Origin: Diploschistes diacapsis
Taxonomy: Eukaryota
Assembly (NCBI GenBank): GCA_023645945.1
Contig: JALAIB010000036.1
Coordinates: 1-43,476 of the forward strand
Length of the DNA: 43,476 nt
Direction of reading: 5' to 3'
A model generated the notes under the pieces. It saw nothing but the letters and a program-made list of their open reading frames with translations. It was not told the origin of the DNA and did not search any database. This document shows, in pieces, positions 10,609-37,745 of this stretch (positions are counted from its first letter, which is position 1; each line of letters opens with the position of its first letter). The translations under genes and the position numbers were made by a program.

Positions 10609-12094
10609 ATGTCAGGAGCAGTTGGGCGCAGTGAGCGCGTGGTTCACCAGGACTACATTGTGCGCCAGCGATATAGCAATGCTCTTCCACCTCCTCCTGG
10701 GGCGCCGAAACTACTCGACATACCACTCAACGGCATGGCTACCTATACCATGCCTGTATATACGGAGCGGATGTACAAGGCGCAGCCGTTCAATATAGAA
10801 GCTGATGCTTTCCTTGGGATGCCAATCGACCTCGTCGGCATGCCCGGTATATTCGAGGGAGATGAGAGCTGTAAGTAGCAATGCGCAAAAGAAAGATTCT
10901 GCCAGTACTGAGACGGCCCAAGCTATCCAAGCTCCACTGGTAACTCCTTCACTCGATGCAAAAGACCGCTCTCTCCTCCGCCCACTCAAATCCCTTGGCA
11001 AACCCAAGAACGAAATCGCCGATGTCAGCTTCCTCCGCCGCACACAATACGTTGCAGAAGACCGCTCCCGCGTCGAAGGCAGCGGCGGTCGTGGCCCGAC
11101 TGGTCAAGTTAAGAGACGGAAGATAGACGCTACCAAAGAGGATCCTATGTACATCCTGCGTTCCGTGATCAAATCCTTCGACATTGCCAACCCCCAATCC
11201 GCCTACACGGGCCCCGACTCCACCACTCAAATCCGCGGCCTCACTGTCAACCAGGAAGACACTAAAGCCTGGAAGAACCCCAAACATCCTACTAAACCGC
11301 ACCTGAAAATGGTCGACTCCTACCCACTCATCCCCGATCTCACAGGCTTCACAGAAGACGAGCAGGGCGGCTACGCCGTCCTCAAGTTCGTCGGCAACCC
11401 AACCGAAATGACCAACAAACTAGATCCCCGCCTCGAAGCCTCGGTACTGCGCTCACTCGACGTAGACCCGCTAGTTGTTGAGGAATTCCAGCTACGCACC
11501 AGCCAGCACAAAGCGGACCCAGAGCACGTCAAAGCACCCTCGCTGCCAACAGTCAACTATGAGCTCTTCCTCCCGCCAAACGAGGAGCAAGCACGGGGCA
11601 TCAAGCGGAAACGCGACGTTCTGAACCCGGAGCGGGACGATGCGGGACTGTACACGGACATCCACGACCCCGAGGGCACGGTGAACGACTGCTTCAAGCT
11701 GAACAATGTGCGCGCGTACGAGAGCGGCAGGCAGGAGACCTTTTCCGAGTGGCCATACAAGGAAGTCGCCATCGCTCTACATGATCCCGAACCCGGTTCG
11801 GTGCCGGAAGCCGATGTGGAAGGGGATGGGGATGAGGATGGGCAGAGCCGAAGAGGTGAAGGGCGGAAGCTGCAGAAGGCGGCGTACTTCTACCCCATCG
11901 TTGCCAAGACCCAGCTCAAGCCACGCCGGGCGGCGCAGCTGGCGCATATGATGGGCTTGCCGGGTGCGGCTGCTGCAGCGAGGGCGGAGGGGGTGGAGGA
12001 GAAGATCGATGTGCTAGCGTTGCAGTATCGGGAGCAGAATGAGGAGGAGAGGGAGGCGAGGACCCAAATTCTGACCAGTTTAGCTGGCAGCTAG
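10609..12094 (+). CDS. PAF1: RNA polymerase II-associated factor Paf1
   Basis: HQDYIVRQRYSNALPPPPGAPKLLDIP, LGMPIDLVGMPGIF, VSFLRRTQY and KHPTKPHLKMVDSYPLIPD. Intron about 10871-10922 (GTAAGT...AAG). Confidence 0.92.
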
Positions 12095-12478: not shown

Positions 12479-14259
12479 CTAAGACATGGCTATCCTTTCA
12501 ACATTGGAAAATCCTACAACTCGGATTGGGCCCCGAAAAACCTTTGTAAGAGCTTTAAGCTTGATGAAGTGCGCATCGTCTAAACCAACATGCTGAGCGG
12601 TATTAGCCCGTGGGCTAAGGATACTGCGGCTCAAGCGCGACTATATCGTCCTTCCAATCCCATAAAGGAGACTTTTCTCGGTAATAATATGGTCTACCAC
12701 ATGAATAAACGAGCGTATGAGTTGCTCGCACTTCTTGTACGTGGACTGTTCGATAGGAGCCGTTAAGGCTTAAAGCTATCGCCGAATGCCATGGTGTTCT
12801 GGGAAATTCCTGGCCGATTTGTTTAATCAGAGGGATCGAGAGTTTAGCTGCACCGGTTGACTGATGGATTGAAAGGCGAACGCAGCCCGGAAACTTATCT
12901 TGTAGAAGCTTCGTGGAAGACTAGAAGAATCAGGTTGAAGTCACATCATCTTGACAAAAGGCTCACTTCAGCACGCATCATCATGTTGATTGCCACTTTC
13001 TTGACAATCTTTCGGTATTGCGAACCACTCCTGATTGTTCTTGCGACCGTGCTGTGCCTTATAGAAAGATAAGAAAACAAATGGCGTCGAAGGACATACC
13101 AGGCTTACCTTAGATCAGTCTCCAGAAACTTGATGAATCCGCAATAAGTCGATAATGCATCGCGGTCAGTTCGTATCAAGTCACGAATCTCTGTTTCACT
13201 TCTGCCATAATTCTGGAGCAATATTTGTCGCGACTGCTTGACCAAAGCAAGATACATGCCTTCCCGTCAGATGTTCTTGACTAAGGCCTAAGATGTCCAT
13301 GACACGCACAAGTTTGAGATTCTTGAATCCATGTCTCTGCATAAGGACCGAAAGTTCATGGGAATAGTTCCAGGTAGTTTCGTCTAATATACCCACGATA
13401 TCTGGCTTACGATTATTCCGAGGCCGCAGAGAATGAAAACTCTTTATAGCGTCGAAAACAAGTCCGTCACTCGCGATGCATACTTCTGCACCAGGACTAT
13501 AAATCTCTCGAATGCTCTCGCAAAGATGATTTAGTCTTGCTAGAGCAAGCATCTCTCCCAAGATCTGGAAGTTTGCCAAGGACTTTGTCCACCTCGTTAA
13601 CCTGCGGAGGTTTAGCTAGTATGGCAGTTTGAGACAATATTGCATCCTACGCTCTTCCAAGGAAATGCAGGTAGAATCATCTTAATAGCCTCATTTTCGT
13701 TACACTCATCTGTATACACGGGAGGAATTGCCATTCTCCAATCCATTCCATGAACTGCGAGTTTTCTGAGCATAGAGTATGGCTACCAAAGCTTTGAAGC
13801 ACATCCAATATCCTTAGTGCTTGGTGTTCGGGACACAAGGCTTCAGGTATATTGTGAAGTCTTAAGTGGGTATAAGATACAATACCAGGTAACACCGCTG
13901 TACTAAATAGTTAACCATTGTAGTTCTTGGTGACTTGCACTTCAACATATGCTATTCGTACCAGAAACGAGCAACTTGATGCTCTCAGTGTCTTTGGGAA
14001 TATCGTCATTTACTCGTGCTCGATAGTCACCTTGGCCATTTGATGAATCGAAGTACTGTAAGAGCTTTCCAAAGATATTGGGAGTACTGACGGAGAAGCT
14101 GCATTTTAGAATTAACACGCAAATGCTTAAGACAATCCGTGTCGAGCTGCTGATGCAGTTCATAAAACACAGTAGGTGAGCAGGGCGACTTGGAAATCTG
14201 GGTAAAGAAACCATGAGTGGGTTCGTTAAGTTGCAATGCAGAGAGGAGCTGATTGCCAA
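12479..14259 (-). pseudogene. Isocyanide (isonitrile) synthase, DIT1/PvcA family, disrupted
   Basis: Minus-strand fragments in colinear order: IKMILPAFPWKS (~13690-13650), VNEVDKVLGKLPDLG / GEMLALARLNHLCESIREIYSPGAEVCIASDGLVFD, TYCGFIKFLETDLR, VRLSIHQSTGAAKLSIPL, PRTPWHSAIA, GRPYYYREKSPLWDW and the tail GPIRVVGFSN. Frameshifts near 13700 and 13558 and stops near 12600-12620. The 5' boundary (13900-14259) is uncertain. Confidence 0.88.
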
Positions 14260-14670
14260 ATGCCCTCTGCAGTCTGAGGCACAGACTAGGTTTTATCCAT
14301 TGATTTTTCTAGGTCTCTGTCAGCTAGTAACCTAGACCGATTCTTTCGTCCTGCGGATATCTCCGTCCCTCCAGTGCAGGGGATGGAGTCACGGCATTAG
14401 CGAGATACAGAACCACTGAAGGTGCAGCTGGCATGCAGGTAGGGTGCTCAAGGTAAGATCCAACAAAGAAAAGCCCTCAGAATTTCCCTTTAAGACCATT
14501 TAGGTAGGCAATCATGGATATAAATTTCTACCCGGATACTTCAGAAATACAGGCCACGCCATTTATATCTTGCACGGAGGATCTCCTAACAATAGCTTGA
14601 CAGGCAGACCTTTCCCCTATCATTTTATGCTGACACCAAATTTGAATAGCAGGCAACAACGTTTAAAAAG

Positions 14671-15970
14671 ATGACCTTAGGGAACGAGGAACAGCTTGAA
14701 TTCGATAAAGGCCTTACTGCATGGCTACAAGTAGCAGCCAGCCATGTTCTAGTGATCAATGGGTTTGGCTACTTTCCGGCATTCGGACTCTTTCAATCGC
14801 ATCGGGAAGCGACATTGGATCGTTCTTCAGCGGATGTCGCTTGGGTAGGCTCTCTTCAGCTTTGCTTGATATTCCTAATTGGAAGTCTGTCTGGACGGGC
14901 CATGGATGCAGGCTATTTCCGAGCTTTACTTCTTTCTGGGTGTGCAATGCAGATTGTTGGAATATTTGGATCTTCCTTTGTTACTCGATACTGTCAGTTC
15001 GTGTTTTCTCAGTGCATCCTGCAAGGCCTTGGGAATGGATTACTTTTCACGCCATTGGTGGCTCTAGTATCTGTGTATTTCAAAACACAACGTGCTTTGG
15101 CTCTCGGGCTCGCTGCTTGCGGTGCTCCCGTTGGAGGTATTCATATTCCTCCTTGTACGCTCTTTCCCTTTCATCATGCGCTTGATCCTTAACCAAACAT
15201 AGATTGCACGCCAATTGGAGTTGCAGATCAGTTTCGCGTGGGTCATTCGCATCATGGGATTCGTCGTCCTTTTCAACACCAGCATCATTCTTTTCATCGC
15301 CCGGCCACGTAAGCTACAGAAATTATCTGGTCCCTTGGTCGAATGGGCTGCTTTCCGTGAGCTGCAATATGTCTTATTCGCTATTGCCATAGCATTTTCG
15401 CTGATGGGCATTTACACGGCGTAATTTTTTGTCTTTCTCCCTCTCTTGAGCTCGAGACTTTCACTCACTCTTATACAGACTGCCACCTTTGGTCGTACCG
15501 TAATAGGCATCTCGCAGGCAACCTCCCTGACAATGTTGATCATATTCAACGCAGTTGGGATTTCGGGACGTTTGGTCCCTGCGATCATCGTAGATCGATT
15601 GCATGGTGCGTTCAATACGCTTATTCCATTCACTTTTATCTCGGGACTTTTGCTTCTTAGCTGGATGGCTGTTACGTCCAAATCCGGATTCACGGCTTTT
15701 GTGGGTATTTACGGTGTTACAGCCAATGCATTTGAAACCTTGTCCCCCGCAACTTTAACAACACTGACTACAGATTTAAACAAAATTGGAGTCGGACAGG
15801 CATGGTATTTACTGTTGGGAGTATTGCTTGCTTGACAGGAGCCCCCATTGCAGGGGCATTGACAGGCTTGGATGATGGGGGATACCGTTATATGCAGCTG
15901 TTTAGCGGTATGGCGGTGATGTTTGGGCTATTTTATTAGTAGCCTCCAGGCTAGTGCGGACACGTCACTG
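14671..15970 (+). pseudogene. MFS monocarboxylate-transporter family (MCH-like) permease, frameshifted
   Basis: DKGLTAWLQVAAS, WVGSLQL, SGRAMDAGYFR, QGLGNGLLFTP, YFKTQRALALG and GRLVPAIIVDR. Apparent +1 shift near 15141 (exon phase mismatch) and -1 shift near 15792, where the expected RTGMVFTVGSIACLTGAPIAGAL lies in another frame. Confidence 0.8.
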
Positions 15971-16363
15971 AGTTTAAGCTGTTATGATCATACGGACAAA
16001 ACCTCACTCCGACAGTAAAGTGGGATTCAAGGCTTCTCGTTTACCCTTTGTTGCTTCAAAATCTCATGTGTGGCTATAACCGCTGCTCTTATCGAGAACT
16101 AACCGGGATCTGATCTATCGAAAGATTTGATTGGGCGCCTGTTTGACCCTAACGAGGTGGACAATCTCAGCAACAAGACGCAAGTGAAAAGAGATAATCT
16201 TGTCTTTTCTCGTGGACTCAGAAAACATAGGTCTAGTTATTACGCCTTAACACAAGAATAGTATTATCTAGGCTTTTTTAGTTTGTCATCTTTGGGAAAC
16301 GGCTTTTAAGGTCATAAATCTGAAGAAGTTCAATAGTCAAAGTTCCAGCGTATATACCTAGCC

Positions 16364-17841
16364 ATGAAGATTCCAATCTTTCAGCTTATCTTCTTTCCAG
16401 GTCTTTCTCTCATTGACTTAGGATATCAAAATGTTTCTGAGATTTTAGGGATCGCTTATCAACCTATGGCTACAACTTGCGGTCCTAACTCTTTCAAGAT
16501 TGCGTGCGTCTACCGCTTTGGTACTATCCTGCCGCCCTCGTTTTTCAAGAACGCGGATCCAATAGTGAGCTACTCCAATACAAAAAAATATCCGGGACCC
16601 ATCGGGAGTTAGTAAGTAATACCGACCTCGTGGTATTTGACCGGCAAACAGGCTTGGAGATCCTTGGAACGGTTCCTAAAATATGGCCTCGATATCTGGA
16701 GGTTCTTAACGTTATACAGTCAGGTGCCAAAAGTAGTTAGGTACACCATAAGCGGCAGTAAAGGGACAGTCAACCCTTTACTGCCGCTTATGGTGTACCT
16801 AACTACTTTTGGCCTAGTACTGTATATGAAGCACTTACATATATACCTAATTTCAACAAGCCTTTCTGTATTTAAGATGGACCACCCGGGAACCTATCTG
16901 ACATTATGATCGACTTGAGTTACGATCCACCCCTTGTGGAGTTATTCATTATCGACCCTCCGGTATATCAACCAACTGGTGATATCCTCTATAGAACATG
17001 ATATACTGGGCGATGTAAGGGAACAACATATTACTACTTAACGGTAATATGCAATGGCCTGGCGCGGTTCGGGTCGATTTAAAGACCTATAGAGCAGAAT
17101 GGCTTATAAAAACTTTTTTTTGGGTTTTACTTCAGAGGGTTGAATAACCTGACCATAGACCCAATTGGAGACATTTAGTTTACAGCTAGCGGTATGTACT
17201 CGATTCTTGTATTGAATGAATCTGGATCTTTTACTGTTTTTTTTAGATTATGCGTATGGCCTGGGTCTATCCAACATGTCTAATTACCTTCAATTTGCAA
17301 CGTACCGATTTCCACACTCGACCGGCGAAATTGCGGTAGTAGAGTCTTCGCTCGAGTATCCCAACGGCATCGTCTTTTCTCGGGACGGCAAGACTCTACA
17401 TATTACAGACACTGATCTAGAGACTGTCGGCCGTAATGCGAGCAAAGGCAAGAATAACTTCTATAATTATCCTATCCGTATTTATTTTACGTCCACATTT
17501 GCTCGCAATATCTATGCCCTTGATGTACGTAGGACGCCTGCCGGAGCCTATCTCGGCGGGAAACGGAGCATCTTTCAAGCTTTGGAAGGAAGCCCGGATA
17601 GGCTCAAAATTGCGGTAAATGGCTATATTATCGCAGGATGTGGTCTTTCCAACGGAGCTGATATTCTCGATCAGTATGGATCGCTCATTGCTCGCATTCA
17701 GACCAATCACCCTGTAGAAAACATGGCATTTGCTGGACCAGAGCTGAAGACGCTCTACCTCACGGGCATCGGCGGCATAACAAGGGTTGATTGAAACCTC
17801 ACCGGCCCAGATCCCAACAATTACTATGAACGGGGCATCTG
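16364..17841 (+). pseudogene. SMP-30/gluconolactonase (calcium-dependent phosphotriesterase beta-propeller) family protein, disrupted
   Basis: YPNGIVFSRDGKTLHITDT, SPDRLKIAVNGYI and ENMAFAGPELKTLYLTG. In-frame stops at 16873, 17176 and 17792, frameshifts, and a MITE insertion at 16717-16822. Confidence 0.85.
16717..16822. mobile_element. 106-bp MITE or internally deleted Tc1/mariner-type element
   Basis: Ends CAGT...ACTG flanked by TA at 16715-16716 and 16823-16824. Perfect 40-bp inverted repeat (16726-16765 / 16774-16813) with an 8-nt spacer. Removing the element plus one TA restores the host frame (...NVI-YEAL...). Confidence 0.85.
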
Positions 17842-18407
17842 ATCTACATCAACGTAGGGGGCCTAAAGCGGGCACTTTTTTGAAAATAACTTCAGGATCT
17901 CTGATTGTTTGTGAAAAGCCAGAGTGGATGTGCCTACTTGTTCCATACCGACGAGTATGCAAGTGAGCTTGAGCTTTATCAGAACCTGAAATGATCGCAA
18001 CCACACCTGAATTAAATAGATTCCATCCAGCCTGCGGCTGATTTTATGCAACAAGGCTGAACATGCAAATTACTATCACGATATCAATAGCTACAGCTGT
18101 GGTGTAATTAGCGGCCCACCGTAAGCAAAGTTTTGTTCGTAGCTTTGGATCGTTGCAAACGATATCAGATTGAATACAGACAATGATTCACGCAGGGATG
18201 AAAGAGTTCTTTTTTACCCCCATTTGTGGAACATTAAGCCTCAAGCTTGAACGTTTGCTCGATCATCTGATAATCTATGGATATTTATTTAGAAGCCTGC
18301 CTCTGTTATTGTTCTACGCGGACTAGGATTTATAACTTAACGTGAATGAGTCGTTCTTTAAGCCGATTAGTACCTACGCTTATATTGGGACAAGTTGTGG
18401 AGAGATC

Positions 18408-19379
18408 ATGGCCATCTATCTAGTTACTGGTTCTTCCAGAGGTCTTGGCCTGGCTTTCGCCTCATCTTTGGTAAGCCAGCCCGCAGACCAAGTTGCTAAA
18501 GCCATTGCTTCCTCTCGAAACAATCCGAGTGAGGAGCTTTAAAATATCATTCAAGGTTCTAATCACTGCGTCATGTGGGTCTAACTTGACATTATAGATA
18601 AGAGAAGCGTAAATCAGGCCGTGAGCGACGTTGAGGATCATTTTGCGTGGTTCCGGACTCAACGCCCTTGTCAACAACAGTGGCATTATCAACTGGCAAG
18701 CACCTGAAACTGGTATTGAAACAACGTTCGTACCATAATACGTGTAATTCAAGTAACGACTAACTTGGGCCGTGAAAGAGATGATTTTAAACATCAGTTT
18801 TCTGTCAACGCTGTGGGCACACACAATGTCACTAGCGCTTTTATTCCGCTTCTGGAAGAGGGTATTTGAAGAACATTGCAATGCTGTTTGTGTTAGCCTC
18901 CAAAGGGATCCTGTAAGACTTTCTAATGAGCAGTAGATCGACTACGGTAGGATCAATAACCTTGGCACCCAAGTATAGTGTCTTCAACCCTCCAGCATGA
19001 AAAGTTAGCAAAGCAGCGTTGAACATGCTCACTGTCCAGTACGTACTGTACTTCAAGGAAGAAGGTTTTACGGTTGTTAGTATCAGCCCGGGAGTAAGAC
19101 TTTCTCTGTCCTTCTTTCTTTCTTTCTTCCTTCCTTCCTTCCTTCCTTCCTTCCTTCCTTCCTTCTTTGTTACATCGCTTATGATGGTCGTTAGTGGTGT
19201 CTCACGGACTTATGAAGGCCCAATGCAGACCTTAGTGCAGAAGAAGGTACAGAAGCGGTTCTGAGCGTGATCCACAAAAACGGTCCAGAGGCTACCGGAA
19301 AGTTTTTCGATATTCGTGTAGCAGGATGGAGAAGCATGAGGGCTTGAATCAGTACGACGGTACCAATCCACCGTGTTAG
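18408..19379 (+). pseudogene. Short-chain dehydrogenase/reductase (CsgA/C-factor-like), disrupted
   Basis: MAIYLVTGSSRGLG (TGxxxGxG), LVNNSGI and PA*KVSKAALNMLTVQY, where the catalytic Tyr of YxxxK is replaced by TGA at 18998. Further TAA stops at 18540 and 18582. Confidence 0.88.
19111..19167. repeat. Compound (CTTT)n(CCTT)n microsatellite inside an intron of the SDR pseudogene
   Basis: Read directly; lies between the GTAAGA donor (~19094) and a TAG acceptor. Confidence 0.9.
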
Positions 19380-20235
19380 GCAACAGAAACTTTCGCTGCT
19401 TTGCGACTAGGCTAGGGAATGATGATAACTGGATGACGGGAAAGCTGCCAAATTTCCGAAGTTGCCTGCATGTGTTACAATACCTACGAAGTGACCCTCA
19501 GAACAAAGGTTAGCACCGAGCCAGTCAGGCGCCACACAAGAAGGGGTCCTTTGCCCTATAAAAGAAAAGAGCTCAACATGTCCTCTCACTAAAAGATATA
19601 TGTAAAAGGCCCCCTAATTTCATTGCGCCGACTTAGCATGAATACCAAGCTATCTCAGCAGAACCCTACCAAAATGCCTAGCATCAGTAATGTTCTTAGA
19701 ACTTGTCAAACAATCAGGAAGTGCGTCACATTGGGCTGGAAACTTTGAGTAGGTTGTTGTTTGTGCATTGTAATGTTGCCTGACGGATAGATTAGGCTGA
19801 ATTTGAGTAGGACCCTGGGCTAGATTCTACCGCCAAAATTGGACGGTGACTTTAAGTAGAACTTCAGCTCGCGATAGTAACAGCGGCAAGACACTCGCCG
19901 CAAGGATGCATCTTTGAATTGTATTCAAACACGCTGTACCTGTCTGGCTACTGTGCCACCTTTCAGCAAATGTCATCCAAGTTACGTTACAGCAATGGTG
20001 GAAGCTACTTGTTGCTACGAAAGGTTGGATGCCTTAAAAATAGCGGCCACTTTTGATAGCCGTCCTTGTTTCGAGTATAATATAAACCTATGATATTATC
20101 GAGTTTTTCGACTAAACCAGCCCTCTTTTCTGTGCGAACGTTTAACCTTGATGGCTATCATATACCTTATTTACTTATTCGTTAGCCTGGTACGGCTGTC
20201 AATTTAATTCCCTACCTCCGAGACTCTGGCAACAG

Positions 20236-21050
20236 ATGCTTTCCCTTTGGGGTTGGAATTTCGGAGCCCCTGTTAATGCAAGCTTCGATTATGTCGTGAT
20301 TGGTGGAGGTACTGCTGGCCTGACCCTCGCAGCAAGGCTATCCAAGATCTTCAGTGTCGCTGTCATTGAAGCTGGAAGTTTCTACGAGATCGGAAATGCA
20401 AATCTCAACCAGATCCCTCTGGATGATGCGTATTTTGTTGGAAAAGACCGCAATGACTTCAACCCCCTTGTGGATTGGGGTTTTGTAACTACACCACAAG
20501 CAGTTAGTTGTTTGCTCTTGCTTCATTTATACTATTCTACCCCGTACTGAACCGAATTGCAGGGCGCTTTAAATCAATCATGCCTGTATGCTCGAGGAAA
20601 CACACTCGGCGGTTGCTCAGCGAGAAATTACCAGCGAGCAACAGCGATGGCATACGAGAAGTGGGCAGCCCAAGTTGGAGACTCGAATTACACACTGGAC
20701 AATTGGCTTCCCTTCTTCGAAAAAAGTTTACATTATATTGCGGCAGATTTATCAAAGCGAGCTGCCAACGCAACTCCGGACGTTGATATATCGAGTCTAG
20801 GAACAAGATCTGGACCCCTTTCACTTACATTTGCAAACTATGCGCAAGCACATTCATTGCGGTTTCAGAAAGGATTCCAAGAGATTGGAATTCGACCAAT
20901 CAACGGCTTTACGAGCGGAAACTTACTGGGTCCTCGTACGTACTAGGAACTATTAATTCTACTACGCAGACACGAGAATCCTCTTAAACATCGTTCCTGC
21001 GGTCTTGTCTGGGATCGGTCAACCACAAATTGGTTATATACCAATCCACA
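20236..21050 (+). pseudogene. GMC oxidoreductase, 5' fragment only
   Basis: FDYVVIGGGTAGLTLAARLS...VAVIEAG FAD-binding motif, YARGNTLGGCSARNY and GFTSGNLLG. A frameshift and stop follow near 20940-20990, and no C-terminal substrate domain is recognisable. Confidence 0.85.
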
Positions 21051-21900
21051 TGTGTCGGAAGACCGCAAGGCTTGCTTACACGTTGCGTGCCGTTCCTGGT
21101 GCTAAATTTTTTAAAAGGATATGATAGACGACAACGCGACCAGGATGCGATGGGAACAGCGTATAATTTCTTTTCATTTAGAGCTGGGAACAGGTAGAGT
21201 TCCTAGAGACAACCATGGGACACGAAAATGCGGCCGGCGATATTAAATACGGTAAGCAACACAGGTAAGTTACTGTTACTGCGAAGATAGCGTTAAGACA
21301 TACGGGTGAGCGACACTTTGATACTGTCCCTTATCTTTGTCAGTTGCTTCTGGAGTTCCCATCAGTCATCTACTTGTTGTATGGCGTGTGCCTTCTCAAC
21401 TACAACTCTTTGATTGTTGTAAAAACGGGCTTAGAAGTAATGGGTGTTCGCTATCAAGTATGATTGCCTTTGAAATCAAACAATATCTATTCGGCGAGTG
21501 CCCTCGTACGTCATTTCGATTCAGGTAACTCAATTATCTTTAATTGCTTGGTATCTTACAACAGCCATGCCGTACACATACATCTAAACCGACACTGCTA
21601 GCTTCATTAACTTATACTTGCCTCTTGGCGTTCTATCAGAAGTTAGGTATCAGGCTGAACCACTGCTATCAACCCGGCTATGTAAGTGGGTGCTGTGCTT
21701 TAGTAGTGCCTTACTGTCCTGCCTTTATCAAGTTCTCTGGCGTTTCAGGGATTATTCAAACAGTCTAAGATTGCAGCATCTCTGGTATCTTTAATTAAAG
21801 CTTGGGTGCTAGTCTATTCTCCCCTTCCAGTCATCAACGAGGGTCTTTAATTGTTATTGAGATCGTTTATGGCTGGCATCTACGAACAACAAAGCTCATC

Positions 21901-23179
21901 ATGGCAGGCCCCACTTTGTCTCCTGCTGAACGATCTCAAGACCGAAGCGCCTATGTAAAATCAGGAGTTCCCTGCTTGATACTGGCTCTTCTTGGGGTTG
22001 TTGGCCGTCTTCATGCTCGCAAAGTTAAAAGGAGACGTTTGGATACATCCCACTACCTAATCATTCTAGGAACAGTTTTTTCTACTTTGCGAAGCGAGCC
22101 TTGTCTTTTCTAGTAACTCTTGCCCCACGAAATCTCATTTCTTTTCAGCTAACAGGGGCAAAGGTCTAAACTATGGCTTTGGCAGGCATATTGAAACACT
22201 CACGGATGATGAGATTGTGACTTTTCTCAAGGTTAGTCTTTGGAACTAGATGCTCAAGTTATGTTTTTTTATTATAACCAGATTTTCTTCGCGGCTGAGT
22301 TCTTTTACGCGATGACAATCACTATCATCAATTTATCAATAGTTTTTCTTTTATTGCTCGATGTTTGCGGAAAAAAGATTCGTCCTTGTTGCAAAATTCA
22401 TCGGTATATTCGTCCTAGCTTGGTGCATATCCTGCGTTTTCTCGGTTCTTTTCAGTTGTGTCCCGGTATATGCCTTTTGGGATACTACGGTGCCGGCAAA
22501 GTGCATCGACAATGCAAAACTCTTCATTGGAGATGCGATACCAAATATTTTCATAGATGCTTGCATTTTAGTACTCTCCATCAGCAAGGTCTAGCAGCTC
22601 CAGATCTCCAAAGGCCGAAAGTTCGCAGTATTAGGCCTCTTCCTCCTCGGCAGTTTGTAAGTTTCTATCAAGAGCGCCCATTTTTCATCATCGACCCACT
22701 AATTGCATGGTAGTGTTTATAGTTGCGAGCATCATGCTATTGGTTCTCATCTTCCACGAGGACCTGAGTGACCCAACTTGTAAGCTACTGGCGGCCAAGC
22801 TCATCGATTCGAATATTAATACATAGAATATGTAGGGGGCCTTGTGAATGCCTTCATATGGTCCAATATCGAAGTCAATATCGCAGTTTTGAGCGCCTGT
22901 CTGCCCACATTCCGACCCCTAATACAGGCGCTATTACCCTCGAATCTAGGTAGTCGACCTACAGAATTTGTCGAGCCTCGTGCTCGGGGCCGCGAATATA
23001 AAGATGCTATGGGGGCACGTTCACATTATTCGATGAATGGGTTCCAATTCCTCCCCGACTCGGTCGGGCAGGAAAATTTGATAAGTTCGGGACAAAGATC
23101 AATCCAACACCATATGAGTTCTGATGGTATTAAAGTGACGCACAAGATCTCTACCGAAAGTGAAATCTTGTTCAACTAA
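21901..23179 (+). pseudogene. PTH11-like (fungal rhodopsin-domain) integral membrane protein, disrupted
   Basis: GFGRHI, FSCVPVYAFWD...KCID, IPNIFIDACIL and WSNIEVNIAVLSACLPTFRPL. Frameshift near 22350 and a TAG at 22592 where Trp is expected. Confidence 0.82.
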
Positions 23180-23350
23180 GCATTAATCTGCTTTCACATC
23201 ATAGTCATAAGTAGACCGGCCATTCGGGGTGTCGGCGTTGATGAAGCATACCAGGAGAAGATTCTGGTCGAGGTTATCAGTTTTTTAACACCTTTGGCGC
23301 ACTCTTGCTAGCCAAACTCGAAGGCTTCGCGTTTTCTCTCGTAATTCTTC

Positions 23351-24393
23351 AAGGTCAACCATGCAGCCGTGCTCCATGAGAAGCACGCTAAAGCTGTCTA
23401 TACCGAACGGCCAGTGCCAGAGCCAGGCGCAGATGAACTAAGAGTACGCAACCGAGCAGTTGCGGTCAATCCGGTCGACTAGAAGATTCAGGACTACAGC
23501 TTATTCGTTGAGAAATACCCGAATGTGTTGGGTAGCGATGTTTGCGGAGTAGTCGATACGATAGGATCAGATGTGACCAAATTCAAGACTGGGATCGAGT
23601 GGCGGGTTTTGCAGTTACCATATACAACTCTAACATCGATCATAGTGCTTTTCAGACATACCGGACATTGCGTGAGATCTCATCGATGAAGATACCTGAC
23701 ACCCTGAGCTTTTGAACAAGGCAGTGTGTTTCCAATGGCCATGGCCACCGCTTGCATTTCACTTTTGTGAGTCTAGGACTGCCAAAACCTCCCAAAGACC
23801 AGGTCAGCTGGGACGCCAATGTCAAGGCACTTCTTATTAGGGGGGGTGGCTCAAGCTTGGGGCAGTGCGCCATACAGATCGTGAGACTAGCAGGAATCGA
23901 GACATTTGTAGTGGCAAGTGCGAAGCATCATGCTGCTTTGACAAAACTCGGCGCCACTCACTGTTTCGACTACCATGATGATGATACAGAGGAGCGAATT
24001 GCAAAGACAGCTAATGCAAACGGGTTGTCAATTGATTTGGCATACAATACTATCAGCGAGAATGGCACACTACACCGATGCGCCAAGGCTCTCAAGACAG
24101 CCAGCCAACAATCCGAACCAACACTCAGTTATGTTCTCTGGCAACCTGAAGGGCAAGCACCACCCGAGGGCGTCAGGCCGGAGCTCACAGTAGCCATGAG
24201 GGTGGGAGGCGACCAGCAAGAGCTAGATCAATGGTTCTTCAATGATTCGCTGGCAAAGGCATTAGCAAGCAGAGAAATCCTCCCTGTTCCAGAGATTGTG
24301 GTATGCCCTGGCGGTATTCGCGCGACCCAGGCAGCCTTAGACAAACTCCGCCATCGCGTCAGCGGCAAGAAGCTGGTAATTCAGGTAGAGTAG
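23351..24393 (+). pseudogene. Zinc-type alcohol dehydrogenase / trans-enoyl-reductase-like protein (MDR family), disrupted
   Basis: PVPEPGADELRVRNRAVAVNPVD*KIQD (TAG at 23480 for Trp), YPNVLGSDVCGVV, LLIRGGGSSLGQCAIQ, LGATHCFDYH and VSGKKLV. No intact ATG; additional frameshifts. Confidence 0.85.
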
Positions 24394-25311
24394 GTAGCAT
24401 GGACGGGGGCTCGTTATGCACGCTGAGATGCCAGAGTCTTATTTGGTTGCAGGAGAGATTTAGTGCCCAAGAGCTCGAGACTGAAATCAGGGAACTAGGC
24501 AACTTGTTTGCTTTTTGCATACCTAGCTCAGCCACAATCAAGGTATCCATCAACCCAGTACATCTCTGCCCATGCCATGCAGGCTTGCAGGTATGCAAGA
24601 GCCAGCTATCCGGCTGCCTGAGGCCGATTGCCTTTCATCAACTGCGTCTGTCCTAGCCTGCACATCTCCGCTTACTGGGACATACTGCTTTTGAACGCAC
24701 CAAACATAGTAGAGATCATGAGAAAAGGCCATTGACCTTGTAAAGAACCGCAGATATCATGTCCAAAGCATGCACCCGTGACTCGGAAAGTTTGCAACTG
24801 GTCATGCAAAAGCCCTTGAGGTGTGCAGCTCGAATGCACAGCACTCCTGTGCAACATGTCTGCTTTGGGTGTGTTGACCGATGTCGTACGAGCTCAAAGA
24901 TCATGCAAGAAGCTGCAGCAATCGAAAAAAGGAGAGTAGGGTAAGAGCTGTGGCTACTGAAATATGACCTGTCCAAGTAAGGCATGCAATAGGAACCCCC
25001 ATCAAGGGCTGGAGGTGAGGAGCTCCTTTATCAACGCTATGACTTTTGCCCCAGCCACGCCCTTGTTGAATTCCTCGCCGTCGGCCTTGCTCAATATGTC
25101 AAACATATTTCAAACCTCTCTAATCTATGATACACTTCTAACCTCTATCAACAAGATATTTTAGCTTGCGGAGCGAAAAACTTTACAGTCAGCAAAAATA
25201 GTTTATTACCCTTTGCTGTTTTTTCTCCCAATGCTCCGTAAGCCGGGATAAACTAAACGAGTCTCACCATTCTCTTCATCTTTCCGACGATGTAAGATCA
25301 TAGTTTTAATT

Positions 25312-27104
25312 ATGTTGCTTTCTCTGACCGCGATGTGTAACATCGAAGGGGATCCACTTGCCTTGATAAACGAGACCGTTTTGTATTCTAAGCCACCACG
25401 GGACTGAATAACTATCCAAGCCATTTGCTAGAGCTTCTAGGAACACATCGGTTCGTGCTCGCCAAGATGGGATTTCCATTCCCGGAACCGGTGTTACGAG
25501 ATATCATCGCTCCACAATAGCACGAGAAACAATATAGCCTGACGGTTGCGGTACGTCCTGCTTCAGGAAGATGAAATCTACACTAACGGTACTCAGAGAA
25601 GGATGCATTACCAGCCAACTATCGGTTTCCCGGACCGGTGAATGAGGCAAATTGGGGAGACTAGGTTGAGCCCACAGCCCTACAACAATCTTTCCAATCC
25701 AGAAGATGGAACTAGCATACGTCTCCATAGTCTGGAGCAATGTGGCACACAGTTCCACGATGGAGTGTCCGGTATATCCACAGTGTCCGACTTAACGTCT
25801 ATGTCCCAGCCCCTCGGACAACAACCTGATTGATGGGAAGAATCCTCCGATTTCCTCCTTACTATCATGAAACTCAACCATGAACACTACATGTCATACT
25901 GGCGCTCTCAACGCAAGATTTCTGTTTGAACGTGATAAAGGGCATCGTTCAAGGCTGATCAATACTGGCGCAGCAGCTTTGCTCCACTTTTAGCATCGAT
26001 AGGCATAAAGCTTACTGTGACTGCCAGCGATTTTACCCCCATCGAACCGTATCAAGCAGACTCCGTAACTCTCGGCGTCGCACAAAGGACGGATATTCTT
26101 GTTCAAGGTCGAGAACGACGCTGATTGCTTCTGTATCCGATCTACGATTTCCCTGAATTGTTCAGGAGCTCATAACATACATGCACTGGCAGTAGGCGTC
26201 CACGGCTCAACAGATGTTGCGTCCTTACCCTACTACCAGTATGAGTAATGCGGCCGCTGCAGCCGACTTGCAATTAACTCTCCGTAGGAACGTAAGCTAG
26301 TCTTCCTTTAACTTTATCCGCGGTTCTTGCTAATCCCTCAGAAAGGATCCTCTAGACCGGACTGTCCCTACAGCCTTCGAACCCGCCACCTTCATTGATT
26401 CGACAAGATTGGTAACTACTATCAATCTTACGACCAACGCTACAGGCCACCACATCTAGATCCAGAGCGACGTTACGCAGTCCACCGACTGTAACGCCCC
26501 TCACTTTCTCCGCGCAGTCACCCAAAACAGCACCGCCTTACCTCTCGGCCCAGAAGCCAGCGTTTACAACTTCGGCACGGAACAAAAACGCTACGGATTG
26601 TCCTAAACAACTACTACCAATCCGCCCCCATCCTATGCACCAGCACGGTCACACATTCCCAAGCCCTTCCCTCTCTCCCCTGACTCCCCAATCCCGACCA
26701 CCTCTCCCCCCCGGACTCATTCTCAAACCAACCCGCACCTTCTCTCTTCCAGCCCAACTCCTCTACTAAACTAAAACACAGGCCGTACTCTCCAAATGCC
26801 ATGGATCCTGGGACGGGCCACACGCTGGCCCATGCGCACAACCCCGCCGCGACGCGACCCTCACTTCCTGCGGCGCTACGGCCACCTGGTGATAAAAGTT
26901 ATGAGCTGGAACAGCCCCGGCGTGTGGCTGTTCCCACTGCCACATTGCGAGGCACACGCCAGCATGGGGTTTGCGCTGAACCTGCTGGAGCTGCTGGAGC
27001 GGCTGCGCGGGGTGAATGCAGGCGAGAGGGGCGTGAGCGCTGTCGATAGCCACGTGCAAGGCGTGGGAAGCGTCGACGGCGAGGAACGTCGTGCAGCAGA
27101 TTGA
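25312..27104 (+). pseudogene. Multicopper oxidase (laccase-like), heavily degenerate
   Basis: IPGTGVTRY, NNLSNPEDGTSIRLHSLEQ..DGVSGI (eroded HWHG box), PHPMHQHGHTF (~26628-26660), NP.RRD and NSPGVWLF-[shift]-HCHI..HASMGFAL copper boxes. Many stops and frameshifts; the 5' end is approximate. Confidence 0.82.
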
Positions 27105-27530
27105 TAAGTTGTGGGGGGGGAGGCAAGGAAAAATGTTATTGAGGCTGAATGAATGGGGAGGATGGAAAGAACAGGGGCGGAGATGGTAGGGTAAAGAGAC
27201 TGATGTAGTAGGGATAGGGAGGTCGAAGTTGATGCATCATCTGTCAAATATTTGCTGCCTGTTTCGCAGAAAGGTTGGAGGAGCAAGCTTGAATTTGTCG
27301 GTCGCTACTATTTACAACATTTCGTCAAAGAAAATGAGCAGGAATCAATCTCTGCATTCTTCATGCCCCTCCTCGCCACTTCAAACAAACTTCCATCGAC
27401 TTCCTACTTTACTCCCACTGCTTCCGAGCACCTTCGGACGAACCCCATCAACGCCTTCCCGGCCACCAACCCCAGAGGAGAAGAAGAAGATGAACCACGT
27501 AGGACTGGAAGTAAACCCGGAACCATCCGT

Positions 27531-30500
27531 CTACCACGCGTCCTCACCAGGCTTCTCCTGCTCCTCGGATTTCTCCCAGCCAGCCCGGTCCCATATCCCG
27601 TGCGTTCCGTCCAGCAGTAAGTCGTCCAGCTTGGAGTCGTCCGAGGGTTTGGAATTGGCCCTTCCAGTGCTGTTGCCGCCGCTGTTATTATTGTTGTTGA
27701 TGTTGTTGCTGTTGTTGGACCCCGCTCTTCTACCGGCGATCGGGGAGGTGAGGTATCTGCTCGCATTTGAGCGCGAGGAAGTAGTGTGGGGGCTGCAGGT
27801 AGGGGGTTGGCCAGATTGCTGCTGGTTGCGCTGGTTGTTGTTATGGTTGGTGCTGTGGTCCGGGGAGAGGGGGATGGGTGGCCTGGTGTTTGTGGGGTTT
27901 TGGTTCTGGGCTTGGGCTTCGTTTCGGTTGTTGTCGCTATCGTGCTGCCGGTAGTTTTGGGAGCCCCAGGACTGGGTGGCGGAATTCGAGATGCGTCGGT
28001 TTAGGTTATTGCCTTGGTTCCAGCCGTAGGTGCAGGCTTGAGCTGGGCCCTCGTTTGATCCACTAATGGTGGCGTCGACTTGGCTGCTTGGTGCGGCATT
28101 AGAGATGTTTCGGTTGTTCTGCCAGGTCTGGGTCTGATTGTTGTCAGACCAGCCTTCGCGGTCGTGGTTGTTGCTGCCTTGGGCTTGCCAAGTGTTTCTG
28201 TTGAAGCTTTTGTTCTCAGTTCCGTTATTTTGATTGTCGCTTTCCTCGAGTGCATCGGCATTTGTGCTCCAATTGCCAGAGTTAACTTCGTTCCCTTGAT
28301 TCTTACCATCCTGGGGTTGCCAAGCGCCTGGATTCCGGTTCTGCTCTTGTTTGCTCCTGGTGTATGCATTGTCGTTTTGCCGGGTGGCTTCCTCACCCCG
28401 GGCTTGGGTTTCAACAGCCTCGAGGTCAGCTTTAGTACCACCTTTAGGGACAGTTGTCCACACGGTAGGTGTAGCATTCTTCTGGTCTCCCGAAGCACCC
28501 TTATCTTCGATAACAGGATCCGGTTGAGACCAGTTGCTGGAGTTCTCCCCAGTTCCTTGCTTTGACGCATCCCATTGCACTCCTGAGCCAGTGTCTTCTC
28601 CATCATCTCCACCCCGGTTCTGCACGTGATCAGAGGCTCGGTCACTTGGAGTGCTGGGTTGAGAATGGTCGACCACAAAGCCACCAGGGCCACCAAAAGT
28701 GGACCCCTGGGCGCCTCCATTCTCATCATTGCCGGGAGGATGCACTATAACGGTAATGTTTGTATTACCGCTGTTCCAGCGTCGTGGTATGGGAGCATTC
28801 TGCCGCTCGCTGTGAGTTGTAAGGTTACTTGGCGGCCTCGGTTGAGAAGCTGGCGCCTGATTGTTGCTTTGGTTAGTGTTGAAAGACATTCCGGCCTGGC
28901 TCTTATCGCGAGGCGAGCTGTGTAGCTTTGAGACATCTTGGGAGCTTACACCAAAGGCATTGCTAGTGCTATGCGCATTATCGGGCACTTGACCTTTTGA
29001 CCAAGTTGATGCGTTCGCCTCGCCCTGATTAGAAGCTTGAAGAAACCATTGGGGAGCCTCTACAGAAACCTTCGAAGGGGAGCTCGTTGGCTGAACCGCT
29101 GGACTTCCACTCTTAGTCCGATAGGAATTGCCAACCTCCAGTGTAGGTTGACCAATGTGAGTATTAGAGGGCATGCTTTTCTGCTGACCATGCCTCGGAG
29201 ACTTGAAATTGGACGGGTGCTGTTGCTCTTGGAGTTTGGACGGACTGAACGAATTGGCAGCCTGTTGCTGGGTATTGTCGCTAAGATTGCCCCAGGCAGC
29301 GTCTGCCTGCTCTGATGCGCTCGTGGTGTCGTTATTGTGAGCCTGATTAGTAGAATTAGTTGCTACTCCTCCCCAATTTACACCTTGATTGTTCCAGCCC
29401 TTGTTGGTATTTTCGTCAACCTTCGCTTCTTCCAGCCCATTAATCGTGGACTTTGGCTGCGCTGATGGAGAGACATCATTAGCTTGATGGATGTTGTCTG
29501 TTGAATTATTCCCATCATTTGAAGCTTGTAGCTGTCTAGATTTGATCATGGAATCAGCATCCAGCGTGGGCCAAGAAACACCGAATTTCTCCTTGATATG
29601 CAGCAACGCCTCGTCTATCCGCTCCTCCGTAGAGTTCTGCGGAGCCAATTCTTTCCGAACATTAGGGGGAATGTTTGGTCCAACCGCATCGATGTACATT
29701 AGTGCAGCTCGTCGCCGTATAAGTACGTCTCCTTCCTCACGTTTCTGCTTTGCTTGAGTTTAAAATTAAAAGTCGAATGGGCTAGTGACGTACCAAAGCT
29801 TCAACCATCTCTGCCACTAGTTCTTCTTGGGTCTCGGTTTTGGCGAGTTTCTTTTCAGCTTCTGTCAGCGAGTCATCGATGGTCATACCGAGTATTGCCT
29901 CAATGGCAGCTTCGCAGAGTTAGCATTGCCAAGCAAATGCTATGATAGATGTAACTTACCTTTATCACGATACTTGAAAACAAACTTAGCATATGGAGCT
30001 TCTAGGCTATCAATGTAGTTTGCCCTGTGAAGGCGATGTGCATATTTCGTAGGGTACTCCTTTGCAACATAGTGTGACACGCCTTCTTCACTTACCTTAC
30101 TTCTACCATCTCTGCTGGGAAAAGGATGTCCTTCGCTCATGTTGGCCGGTGATTCGGTCTGCGGTACGCCCAGATGAGAGGTGTACCAACTAGGTTTTGG
30201 TTTATTCCGACTTGAAGAATCGCCCCCTGGCTCAGGTACTGCACTAATCGAATAGTTCCAAGAATCTGCAGCTGGAAAGTAGCTCCTCACAAGTTCTGGC
30301 AGAGCGTCTCCAGAGTTTCGAATCAACCATTGCCTATAGTTGCTTGCCCGGGGTTCATTATCTGGAACTTTGCCTCGAGCATCCGCTGTGCTACCTTTGG
30401 CTGTTTGCTCTGTTCTCCTCCCTTCTTGCACGCTCTTGTCCTCACCGTTTTGCTTTTTCTTGTCTTTGCTTTTCTGCTTGTTCTTGTTTTCACCTTTCTG

Positions 30501-31777
30501 CTTGTTCTGGTCTTCACCTTTCTGCTTGTTCTGGTCTTCATTTTTTTGCGTGTTCTTGACCTCACCTTCTTCCACGTCTTTGTCTCTACCTTTCTGCACT
30601 TCCTTGGGTTTGCCATTCGGCTCATCTGACTGGACTGTGGCTTTCTTCTTGCTATCTTCAGTGGTGCCCTGCTCGTCCTTTTCGCTAATGCCTAGGGCGT
30701 CGGCGTCGTCACTTCCCGCATCGGGATGCTGACTCAAGCTCGACGTGGCCCCAGGCTTTGTTTCATGCTTATTGTCACTTGCTAGCTTGGGCGAGGCTTT
30801 ATCCTTAGAAAGGTGAGAATCGTCTCGTACATCATTAGTATCAAGTTGAACTCGTTAAGAACTACTTACTTGATTTTATGGCTTCGCTTTGATGCCTTTT
30901 CTCTTTAGGCTTCATGCTTCTCCTTTCAATCCCAACATCTGCCGGAGAAGATCTCTTTCGCACGAACATCAAGCGAGTATCCTTCTTTTTCGGTCGATCA
31001 TTTGCAGAATCGTCATCAGCGCCATCGCAGCCAAAGGGAATCTTATGTTTTTCAGCATGATGTTCTAGGCCAGCATCATCGTACACAAACTTCCATGTAC
31101 CGCGCTTAGAAGTTAAACCCAGGATTTCAGAATTCGGATGGGGACCAAAAGTGGAAAGGGGATGGCTAGGTCGTCGGTCACCATGACATCGCAGTACAAT
31201 TACCTCGATGACTCCGTAATTCTTACGACTCCGGGAAGCTCCAGCTTTCTCATCAGCTGAGCGCCTGTGTCCTTCACTAAAGGGGGCGAACACCCAGGGA
31301 ATGCCCCACATCTGGTGGTTGCTGTCCTGCATCCTTTCATCCTGCCGAACTACGAAGCTGACTTCTGACGTTGACTGAGGCTCACCAGGTTTGGGAAAAG
31401 TGAGGTTCTGTCTGTTCCGATTGCAAGCGTACTTTCCATCGATGTCTAGTTGACCTGAATAAGATAGCAAAACAAAACCGGATGCTCTAAAACTTACAAA
31501 CAAACATAGAAAGCCCAGGCGCAATGTAGCCGTGGGACTGGAGCTGGACGCGAAATTGCGTCGACTCATCTGGGATGTGAAGATAGCATTCGACTCTCCC
31601 ATCGCCGTACTTGACATCGTACTCGTTGAACCCTGTGTTAGCATCTGCACTCAAAGTCAGCAAGAGGTTTTGGTAGGAGTCACAGGGAATCAAAGAAGGT
31701 TCATTCCCTTCGAGACCTCGCTCGACGAACCTACCTGCAGAAATCACAGTGCAGATCAACTGCTTAAGGATGGGCAT
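27531..31777 (-). CDS. Large multi-exon protein of unknown function: conserved fungal N-terminal domain plus a long Q/N/S/G-rich disordered tail with spaced Trp
   Basis: MPILKQLICTV...EYDVKYGDGRVECYLHIP...GYIAPGLSMFV / IDGKYACNRNR...VSFVVRQ and later KYAHRLHRANYIDSLEAPYAKFVFKYRD resemble a recurrent Pezizomycotina hypothetical family. Most ORF pieces join through GT-AG introns; the acceptor near 30810-30825 is ambiguous. The last exon contains the 722-aa ORF. Confidence 0.72.
30437..30545 (-). repeat. 24-bp coding tandem repeat (EDQNKQKG-like units, ~4-5 copies)
   Basis: Translated EDQNKQKG EDQNKQKG ENKNKQKS KDKKKQNG EDK; DNA unit CACCTTTCTGCTTGTTCTGGTCTT on the + strand. Confidence 0.85.
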
Positions 31778-36566: not shown

Positions 36567-36694
36567 GATGAAGAGATTGGGCCGCAATGCCGAATCAAGA
36601 AAGCGATACGACGTGGGAAAGTGATCAGGATATTGTGAAGTTGGGGAGCTCACAGACCACAGACTGGGAGGAACAAACTCGTCCGTCCTTAGTT

Positions 36695-37608
36695 CGTCCG
36701 TCCGTTCGGATAAGGTCTGGGCGAGCTGTTGTATTATGCAAGAGATAATTTGGCGTAGAGATGGGCAGATTCTTGTAGAAGCCAGGAATAAGGCAGCAGC
36801 ATATTGAACCTAGAGAGGATGGCTTTGATTTTCGTGCGTTTTCTTCGGACGGGAGAGAATCGGTGCTGACAAAGAATGCCCCCCCAGGCTGATAAGAACA
36901 CATACCTCTCTTTTACTATTCCCACGTACTGTGTCCCTAGACTTGGGATTAAATCGGACCCGGTCCATGTTTTCTCTCTAATAGAAAGATCCCGCTTGCT
37001 TCATGACCACCCTAGACCCTTATAGCTGATGCGCCAGAGCCTGAGCCCCTTTTCCTTTTGAGTTAGTCTCCCGCTGATTCCCATTTGGATTAGTGGATGC
37101 ATGATGTGTGAAATCTACGGCAATCTATGAGTCGACTCATCATGATTATGATAACAGAAACCCCCTACTATACTAGTACCGGTGTTCATTATGAATCATT
37201 CTTGACCATTTTCCGCAATTTCAAAAGAGCCAAATGGATGAGAGTCTGGTCGAGATCGATAGGCCAAGGGCTCGAGGGTCAGCAAAACCCCGAGTCCGTA
37301 GGTACAATAATAATACAATAATATAATATATGAGCATATGGCTAGGTAGGCAGGAAGGAAGGCACGGACTTAAAGGTGATGCTCTTGACTCCGACTCCGA
37401 AGTCCTCTCACGCTTGCATTAAAAAACGGAACTTTAACTTTAAATAATCTTCCTGTTATGATGACTCACTGTCGTTTGGCACTCGTAGCTATGCGGAAGA
37501 AGAAGGGAGATATTATTTTCTTGTTATCACCGGACGGACGGGGCTGGATGGTTCGACCGAAAGTGAGATTCTGACCTACCGTTGTCCCAACTACTACAAT
37601 ATTATATA
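36695..37608. promoter_or_regulatory. Divergent TF/MFS promoter with CGG-triplet motifs and a TATA-like box
   Basis: CGGACGGACG on - at 36695-36704 and on + at 37531-37540, CGGACGG at 36846-36852, GACTCCGACTCCGA at 37387-37400, and TATATA at 37603-37608. Confidence 0.5.
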
Positions 37609-37745
37609 GTGTCCACAATGTGCTCCCGTTCAGCTGGGTTTTCTCCAGCTCAACTTCTTGTCCTACAGTGGAAGTATTACCCACCCTAGCTCCGACCCTT
37701 CAGGCGGAAGCTCTTTTTTAAGGCCAGCAACAGATCAACCACAAA

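Follow-up and report, generated by a model that had tools for sequence, protein, structure and literature searches.

The stretch of DNA examined here, referred to as the window, is the whole of one 43,476-nucleotide contig (JALAIB010000036.1, our C2890) of the Diploschistes diacapsis assembly GCA_023645945.1, which comprises 29.1 Mb in 4,361 contigs and is called G000 below. Between 12.5 and 27.1 kb the window carries eight genes, one of them encoding a single-domain isocyanide synthase (ICS), and all eight are broken. We consider, with a probability of about 0.88, that this block is a single ICS biosynthetic gene cluster which was once functional, no longer has any function and continues to erode. 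Its gene content is not unprecedented, because matching clusters are rows in the 2023 catalogue of fungal ICS clusters (Nickles et al., Table S4, PMC10153163), and the block is a member of a catalogued, chemically unexplored family. Statements about this catalogue concern the parts of it that we consulted, and counts taken from the table are lower bounds. The features are these, with the flanking genes last:

12503..13847 (aligned part), minus strand: pseudogene of a single-domain ICS (DIT1/PvcA), with four frameshifts near 13694, 13562, 13255 and 12617
14671..15965, plus strand: MFS transporter pseudogene, divergent from the ICS, with a stop at 15422, frameshifts near 15791 and 15928, and the intron-1 donor lost
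16364..17830, plus strand: SMP-30/gluconolactonase-like (SGL) beta-propeller pseudogene, with four stops, three frameshifts and a transposable element in an exon
16715..16822, no strand assigned: palindromic miniature inverted-repeat transposable element (MITE) of 108 bp inside the lactonase exon, with a TA target duplication and CAGT...ACTG ends
18408..19326, plus strand: short-chain dehydrogenase (SDR) pseudogene, with four stops and two frameshifts, one stop standing in place of the catalytic Tyr codon
20152..21062, plus strand: GMC oxidoreductase remnant, with a frameshift at 20926 and a stop at 20985, residues after 284 of 617 being absent
21901..23179, plus strand: PTH11-like (fungal rhodopsin domain) pseudogene, with a frameshift near 22345 and a stop at 22592
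23357..24393, plus strand: MDR pseudogene, a medium-chain (GroES-type) reductase, with a stop at 23480, three frameshifts and its domains in two frames
25478..27105 (aligned), plus strand: laccase-type multicopper oxidase remnant, with four stops, about 13 frameshifts and a 69-codon deletion
10609..12094, plus strand: PAF1 (Pfam Paf1), 478 amino acids, one intron; intact left flank, outside the cluster
27528..31777, minus strand: large low-complexity gene, 1,353 amino acids, four GT-AG introns; intact right flank, outside the cluster

The first-pass annotation had described eight decayed gene families between intact neighbours, and this description was borne out in both respects: the frame of PAF1 is uninterrupted, and splicing of the right-hand gene gives an open frame of 1,353 amino acids. 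A Pfam scan of the window, done with stop codons read as X and accompanied by a six-frame reading, found all eight families at the places given for them (DIT1_PvcA, MFS_1, SGL, adh_short, GMC_oxred_N, Fung_rhodopsin, ADH_N with ADH_zinc_N, and Cu-oxidase). Small corrections concern the bounds, the aligned ICS running from 13847 to 12503 and the aligned laccase from 25478 to 27105. Lesions were counted with a spliced, frameshift-aware aligner by setting intact relatives against the window; the 2,776 codons aligned in this way over the eight genes contain 16 stops and 29 frameshifts (ICS 4, MFS 3, lactonase 7, SDR 6, GMC 2, PTH11-like 2, MDR 4 and laccase 17); two possible splice flags in the PTH11-like gene were traced to a rough reference model and left out. 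The lost MFS donor, the truncated GMC, the laccase deletion and the MITE are structural damage beyond this count. When the same references were aligned to other cluster loci, 14 of 18 alignments were lesion-free, two had one frameshift each and two represented decayed lactonases. Within G000, a stop was present in 6 of 76 other PTH11-type exon matches as against eight of eight genes broken in the block, so the decay of the block is not a matter of chance; lesions were found in two of five close G000 paralogues aligning at 45% identity or more. Decay of the type caused by repeat-induced point mutation left no sustained signature in 1-kb bins, 2 of the 15 bins between 12 and 27 kb being marginally positive.

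Three sequencing runs (X1, X2 and X3) were compared with the window through their Logan contigs, and the run containing 99% of the window's words is a lichen metagenome. The X1 contigs span 10.5–28.5 kb with zero gap letters and, in the seven long pieces, a depth of 83–173, the sole hole (19099–19176) being a (CCTT)n microsatellite within the last SDR intron. X1 is possibly the same read set as the window and not an independent sample, so this agreement rules out assembler error and nothing further. X2 and X3 represent two related lineages, about 3–4% distant from the window. Loci compared at the DNA level carry L-numbers (L024–L045 include metagenome ICS loci; L011 and L054/L056 are G000 loci), and proteins retrieved as database matches carry P-numbers such as P0002 and P0318.

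The remnants retain clear likeness to intact genes. PF05141 is found in three pieces and three frames of the ICS pseudogene (58.7–67 bits, curated cut-off 26.4), whose intron-2 donor is altered and which shares 57.6% identity and four intron positions with the intact L035 model. The MFS and lactonase are 62.9% and 63.9% identical to their L035 models, and the window MFS tops, by identity (56%), the 29 G000 matches to the L024 cluster MFS; on our own reading of its sequence, not from a tool, the transporter would be of monocarboxylate type. SDR lesions were read only against a G000 paralogue at 39% identity. The PTH11-like pseudogene is 46.7% identical to the L035 cluster gene and ranks second of 77 G000 matches, at most 1.2 bits behind the first. 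The laccase remnant, in which the deletion removes the second copper motif, is 50% identical to intact relatives that are themselves 66–67% identical to L024. The MITE in the lactonase is present at no fewer than 40 places in G000 (80 matches, since each of the 40 places scored out of 91 candidates matches on either strand), with up to 98% identity and with flanking TA at both ends of all six copies inspected. Exactly its 108 bases are missing at this site in X2 and X3, and this empty site together with the near-identity of the copies indicates recent activity. No copy of SGL or MFS closer than the window remnants was found in G000, nor a second ICS, an absence not proven in an assembly of this fragmentation.

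Intact versions of the cluster exist elsewhere, as had been supposed for a decayed copy of a single isocyanide-synthase cluster. In a profile search, the nearest named relatives of the window ICS were the single-domain ICSs of Chalara (Stipitochalara) longipes, Colletotrichum and Fusarium, the best named match being the ICS of Chalara cluster 1099. Table S4 (PMC10153163) lists the following contents for these and further clusters:

Chalara cluster 1099: MDR, MFS, laccase, ICS
Colletotrichum cluster 579: ICS, MFS, laccase
Clusters 495 and 1454 (1454 from Fusarium): ICS, MFS
Venustampulla echinocandica cluster 832 (RDL33850-54): GMC, SDR, SGL, MFS, ICS
Xylona cluster 505 (KZF20175-83): GMC, MFS, MDR, SGL, MFS, ICS, laccase
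Diplodia cluster 604: SGL, MFS, ICS, laccase, GMC, SDR
Plenodomus cluster 1163: GMC, laccase, ICS, MFS, SGL
Xylaria cluster 901: SGL, MFS, ICS, laccase, MDR

Combinations of ICS, MFS, SGL, multicopper oxidase and GMC, in part with SDR and MDR, are thus on record, and the earlier remark that the gene content matched no recognisable pathway no longer applies. An independent search with the window GMC gave RDL33850, the first gene of Venustampulla cluster 832, as the best of 627 matches, and the window's ICS-MFS-SGL-SDR-GMC is the order of that cluster reversed, gene for gene. The fifth GMC match, KZF20175, is a member of Xylona cluster 505, and OMP83340 belongs to Diplodia cluster 604; a further match, EOD43060 (Neofusicoccum), has a number inside the range of cluster 200 and is absent from that cluster's rows. 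Botrytis cluster 28 (21 of 33 rows), Mytilinidion cluster 1152 and Aspergillus heteromorphus cluster 790 (6 of 12 rows) were considered and do not belong to this family. Four GMCs in the top ten matches (P0172, P0173, P0176 and P0179) come from Trapelia, Pseudocyphellaria, Chaenotheca and Alectoria, and the DNA around them may contain the cluster in an intact lichen version. The 2023 survey barely covers the Lecanoromycetes (at least 8 rows and at least 5 species, among 3,300 genomes), and it includes multicopper oxidases in the core gene content of families of ICS clusters (PMC10153163).

A scan of metagenomes returned 23 ICS loci, many of them near-duplicates and by our count about 12 lineages. 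The partners were MFS at 17, SGL at 12, laccase at 7, an MDR at 6, GMC at 3, PTH11-like at 3 and SDR at none, and the six loci without an MFS are short pieces of 1.4–3.8 kb. The divergent ICS/MFS pair is found in the window and in 15 of the 17 MFS-bearing loci. Three near-identical contigs, L034–L036, unite six of the eight genes, almost all unbroken (ICS, MFS, SGL, MDR, PTH11-like and a GMC 3' end); ICS-MFS-SGL have the same order and orientation as in the window, GMC-PTH11-MDR are adjacent, and the GMC end, at the edge of the fetched DNA, is 87–89% identical to RDL33850. Intact ICS orthologues are therefore co-localised with at least three of the other genes in several species, the arrangement that the first-pass annotation had proposed looking for. 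The ICS, MFS, SGL and laccase share intron positions between the window and the intact loci; the intact laccases have lost none of their four copper motifs, nor the intact SGLs any of the four metal-site motifs; and SGL, GMC and laccase have hydrophobic leaders at the N-terminus, as judged by eye. At L038/L039 and L042/L043 the ICS is still intact and decay has struck the SGL by itself. Neither PAF1 nor the right-hand gene had a match beside the intact cluster among the 23 loci, so the insertion site is not common to the loci examined.

Some of these loci differ in further ways. L044/L045 carry a different ICS cluster, in which two convergent-facing ICS genes enclose genes for an amidase, an MFS and a DJ-1/PfpI protein that resembles isocyanide hydratase. 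In L031 (10310-14536) the ICS is followed by TauD and an FAD-dependent oxidoreductase and has the divergent MFS as well. In the tree this ICS stands immediately outside the single-domain clades, whose ancestor the arrangement may resemble. A UDP-glycosyltransferase (L035:15442-16596) lies 4 kb downstream of an intact ICS and is possibly an extra tailoring gene in that lineage. The cluster laccases L024:13925-15600, L033:7662-9474 and L038:13057-14917 end in the C-terminus HCHIAWHASMGY, whose tyrosine we take to be at the type-1 copper axial site, a position usually held by Leu, Phe or Met; the corresponding residue is Phe in the window and Leu in L037 and the G000 paralogues.

Phylogenies place the window genes with cluster-linked copies. 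The window ICS falls, on a long branch, within an MFS-linked single-domain clade (support 0.98) that includes Chalara, Colletotrichum, Fusarium and ten of the loci, and this clade sits among ICS-TauD fusions, which branch outside. The GMC groups with Venustampulla and Glarea (0.88), the laccase with the cluster laccases L024/L033/L038 (83/84), and the MDR with the L035 cluster MDR (88/91); all four are apart from G000 paralogues. The laccase tail HASMG is common to the window and the cluster laccases and was found at none of nine G000 loci. In sum, for ICS, MFS, lactonase, GMC, PTH11-like, MDR and laccase the closest or near-closest intact relative lies beside an orthologous ICS elsewhere.

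The lesions also speak to the course of decay. Lesion density is homogeneous across the seven non-laccase genes (p = 0.42) and three times higher in the laccase (17 in 440 codons versus 28 in 2,336, p = 3e-4), and for this reason the laccase probably failed first, with the other seven following later and roughly together. The related lineages appear to have kept losing pieces separately: one X3 contig joins 17075 to 24569, with SDR, GMC, PTH11 and MDR gone; the X2 and X3 contigs have different laccase deletions; and X2 has private frameshifting indels at 20570 (GMC) and 24237 (MDR). X2 has no cover over ICS and MFS (12.9–15.9 kb) and is about 90–150 deep elsewhere, which, with no joining contig, is not counted as evidence. 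Gap letters number 14 in 12479–12839 and 1 in 12853–13382 for X3, and 3 in 22888–24005 for X2; given without positions inside the contigs, these counts fit frameshifts private to the window and serve as a lead only.

Outside the cluster, the spliced PAF1 frame is lesion-free against the full-length homologue P0318 and differs from X2 by 12 synonymous and 8 non-synonymous changes among the rows listed. Its stop codon at window position 12092 is Gln in X2, giving a different C-terminus there. The nearest named PAF1 proteins are from Lecanoromycetes (42–45% identity), and metagenome proteins reach 65%. The right-hand gene has a small folded-looking N-terminal part followed by long Asn/Gln/Ser-rich repeats; it matched no Pfam family, and a protein atlas search gave no useful match. 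Further right (34032–39605) lie an intact fungal transcription factor on the minus strand and, divergent from it, a TRI12/DHA2-type MFS on the plus strand. The Zn-cluster-type factor (34.0–36.8 kb) and DHA2-type MFS (37.7–39.6 kb) were considered as cluster members and rejected, being unmatched in the 23 ICS loci, and no ninth relic was found in the intergenic gaps or at 32–34 kb. Elsewhere in G000, a patulin-synthase-like GMC paralogue on C587 (L054/L056) with one frameshift and a laccase paralogue on C3989 (L011) with three lesions are both probable pseudogenes.

The living pathway as a whole might have exported a tyrosine-derived isocyanide or formamide that was then oxidised or coupled outside the cell, a scheme to which we give somewhat less than even odds. 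A cytosolic single-domain ICS would convert an aromatic amino acid, most likely tyrosine, and ribulose-5-phosphate to an isocyano acid or its N-formyl hydrate, and the carboxylate would be retained in the absence of a TauD domain. SDR and MDR could reduce the ICS product inside the cell before the divergent MFS, the sole invariant partner, exported the acid. The putatively secreted laccase would oxidise or couple the phenol ring, a role played by the P450 Dit2 in the yeast dityrosine pathway, the GMC oxidase and lactonase, likewise putatively secreted, would tailor the product, and the PTH11-like protein might sense a cue. The solved structural relatives of the ICS are tyrosine/tryptophan isonitrile synthases, enzymes that join the amino acid and ribulose-5-phosphate to give isocyanopropanoic acids, after which a TauD-type enzyme strips the carboxylate (PMC11350588). 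The intact ICSs hold PF05141 only, with ICS-TauD fusions branching outside, which fits the loss of TauD from ICS that has been proposed (PMC10153163), and a product that stays an acid would suit a monocarboxylate-type MFS as invariant partner. More tentatively still, the fossil may be the most complete version of a widespread but chemically unexplored fungal pathway. Here the isocyano amino acid would leave the cell unmodified, and its completion would fall to a dedicated laccase (Tyr at the type-1 copper axial position) acting with a secreted oxidase and lactonase. If true, this would be a laccase-based counterpart of dityrosine coupling, and its isocyanide or formamide products would form a class of their own. 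A search for shared promoter words gave no 7- or 8-mer beyond shuffles in eight intergenic regions of distant species.

Several observations weigh against this picture of one decayed cluster and its pathway. The SDR is absent from all 23 loci and its orthology is argued solely from position, by comparison with RDL33851 (Venustampulla, at the same position) and OMP83341 (Diplodia); no single intact locus among those examined has all eight genes; and the PTH11-like linkage comes from three near-identical contigs, that is, one lineage, with one G000 paralogue scoring equally high. The GMC clade including Xylona is supported at 0.73 only, the support for the laccase and MDR groupings is moderate, and the MDRs of L033/L028 and of L024 have other places in the tree, so that the cluster MDRs are not one lineage. 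Gene order in Table S4 was deduced from adjacent accession numbers as a proxy for physical order, and the Venustampulla, Xylona, Diplodia, Xylaria and Plenodomus clusters are linked to the window by GMC sequence or domain content, not by ICS sequences. The number of lesions counted in the laccase may be too high, since it was aligned at 50% identity, and the X3 joint is a single contig of depth 3. No laccase is found in Venustampulla 832, Fusarium 1454, L032 or L035 (for L035, within 10 kb), so laccase coupling is not obligatory, and the crm-type ICS uses valine, so an ICS substrate need not be aromatic. A mosaic, an alternative already raised by the first-pass annotation, would be a dumping ground of unrelated accessory genes, each of which died independently, with ICS and MFS as the only real pair. 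Cluster content does differ between fungi, the SDR is missing from the loci, G000 holds other broken accessory genes (the GMC on C587, the laccase on C3989) and the laccase decayed on its own schedule. A mosaic is nevertheless very improbable in view of the five-gene collinearity with Venustampulla, the six genes together in L034–L036, the grouping of the GMC, laccase and MDR remnants with cluster-linked copies, and the homogeneous lesion density of seven genes. Sequencing or assembly error, in a cluster that is really intact, is hardly credible as the source of the lesions. In its favour, 5 of the 29 frameshifts lie near a run of at least five equal bases (3.9% of random places do) and X1 may consist of the same reads. 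Against it, errors do not take the form of 16 stops, a MITE, a truncation and a deletion of 69 codons, the X1 contigs agree at a depth of 83–173 without gap letters, both neighbouring genes on this contig have open frames, and X2 and X3 carry different lesions.

Two other accounts accept a single decayed ICS cluster and concern what it did. In one, which we think unlikely, the isocyanide was exported to scavenge copper, with the laccase as its client or as a co-regulated copper sink, not as a tailoring enzyme. Xanthocillin has chalkophore-like properties, copper regulates the two isocyanide products that have been characterised from A. fumigatus (PMC10153163), and a copper enzyme stands next to the ICS in 7 of the 23 loci and in many Table S4 clusters. 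However, no copper transporter occurs in any cluster examined, and a tailoring function accounts better for the lactonase, the GMC and the reductases. Nor did a promoter scan lend support to the copper binding suggested at first pass: motifs that we take to represent Mac1- and Ace1-like sites were not in excess in ten ICS-MFS intergenic regions (1 versus 1.3, 0 versus 0.67, 17 versus 16.8 and 12 versus 13.3 expected). In the other account, less likely again, the laccase dearomatised the tyrosine ring to a spiro-lactone dienone, the lactonase opened it, and MDR and SDR reduced it to a hydroxy-cyclohexanone isocyanide. This single scheme would cover the lactonase, an ene-reductase-type MDR and the SDR, the metal-site motifs are kept in intact SGLs, and fungal isocyanides with hydroxy-cyclohexanone-type rings exist. 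Yet cytosolic reductases would have to act after a secreted oxidase, SGL has decayed by itself at loci with an intact ICS, and no experimental support was found.

A dead copy makes nothing, but as the remnant of one cluster it unites genes of which the intact clusters have varying subsets, and so shows which of them belong together. The fossil points to the intact clusters of Venustampulla (RDL33850-54), Xylona (KZF20175-83), L024, L035 and L038. Few fungal isocyanide pathways have a known product, none with a laccase was found, and no product is described for these clusters in the literature found, most subscription papers being outside its coverage. The block also shows cleanly how an entire cluster erodes where it stands, in a lichen-associated lineage, probably with the laccase first and with differing losses in close relatives.

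Among known systems, the Table S4 clusters (PMC10153163) are the nearest to the window in having a single-domain ICS beside an MFS and varying subsets of SGL, multicopper oxidase, GMC, SDR and MDR. In contrast to them, the window has all its genes broken, the largest set among those examined (eight), a laccase at the far end instead of adjoining the ICS, and a PTH11-like gene, whose Pfam family is unreported in the rows examined. The yeast and filamentous dit1/dit2 cluster for N,N'-bisformyl dityrosine also has a single-domain ICS, together with an exporter of the MFS type and a partner that oxidises phenols. However, no cytochrome P450 (Dit2) occurs in the block, its gaps or 83 open reading frames from ten loci, and the Paracoccidioides single-domain ICS P0029, which we take to be dit1-like, falls in another part of the ICS tree. 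With the crm-type ICS-NRPS-like clusters, to which CrmA belongs, the DIT1/PvcA domain is the sole likeness: adenylation, carrier and transferase domains are missing, and intact relatives of the window ICS measure 510–570 amino acids. The A. fumigatus xan cluster for xanthocillin also has the DIT1/PvcA domain, and the C-terminal tail of the window's clade aligns into ICS-TauD fusions. The xan genes include a P450, an isocyanide hydratase and a transcription factor, and the window has none of these in its cluster and no TauD, a domain equally absent from P0002–P0005 and P0007. As a degenerate fungal biosynthetic cluster, the block resembles the abrogated ascochitine cluster reported to exist in Ascochyta, a secondary-metabolite cluster lost by pseudogenisation in some lineages; it differs from that fossil in being an ICS cluster in which every gene is broken and all eight are still in place.

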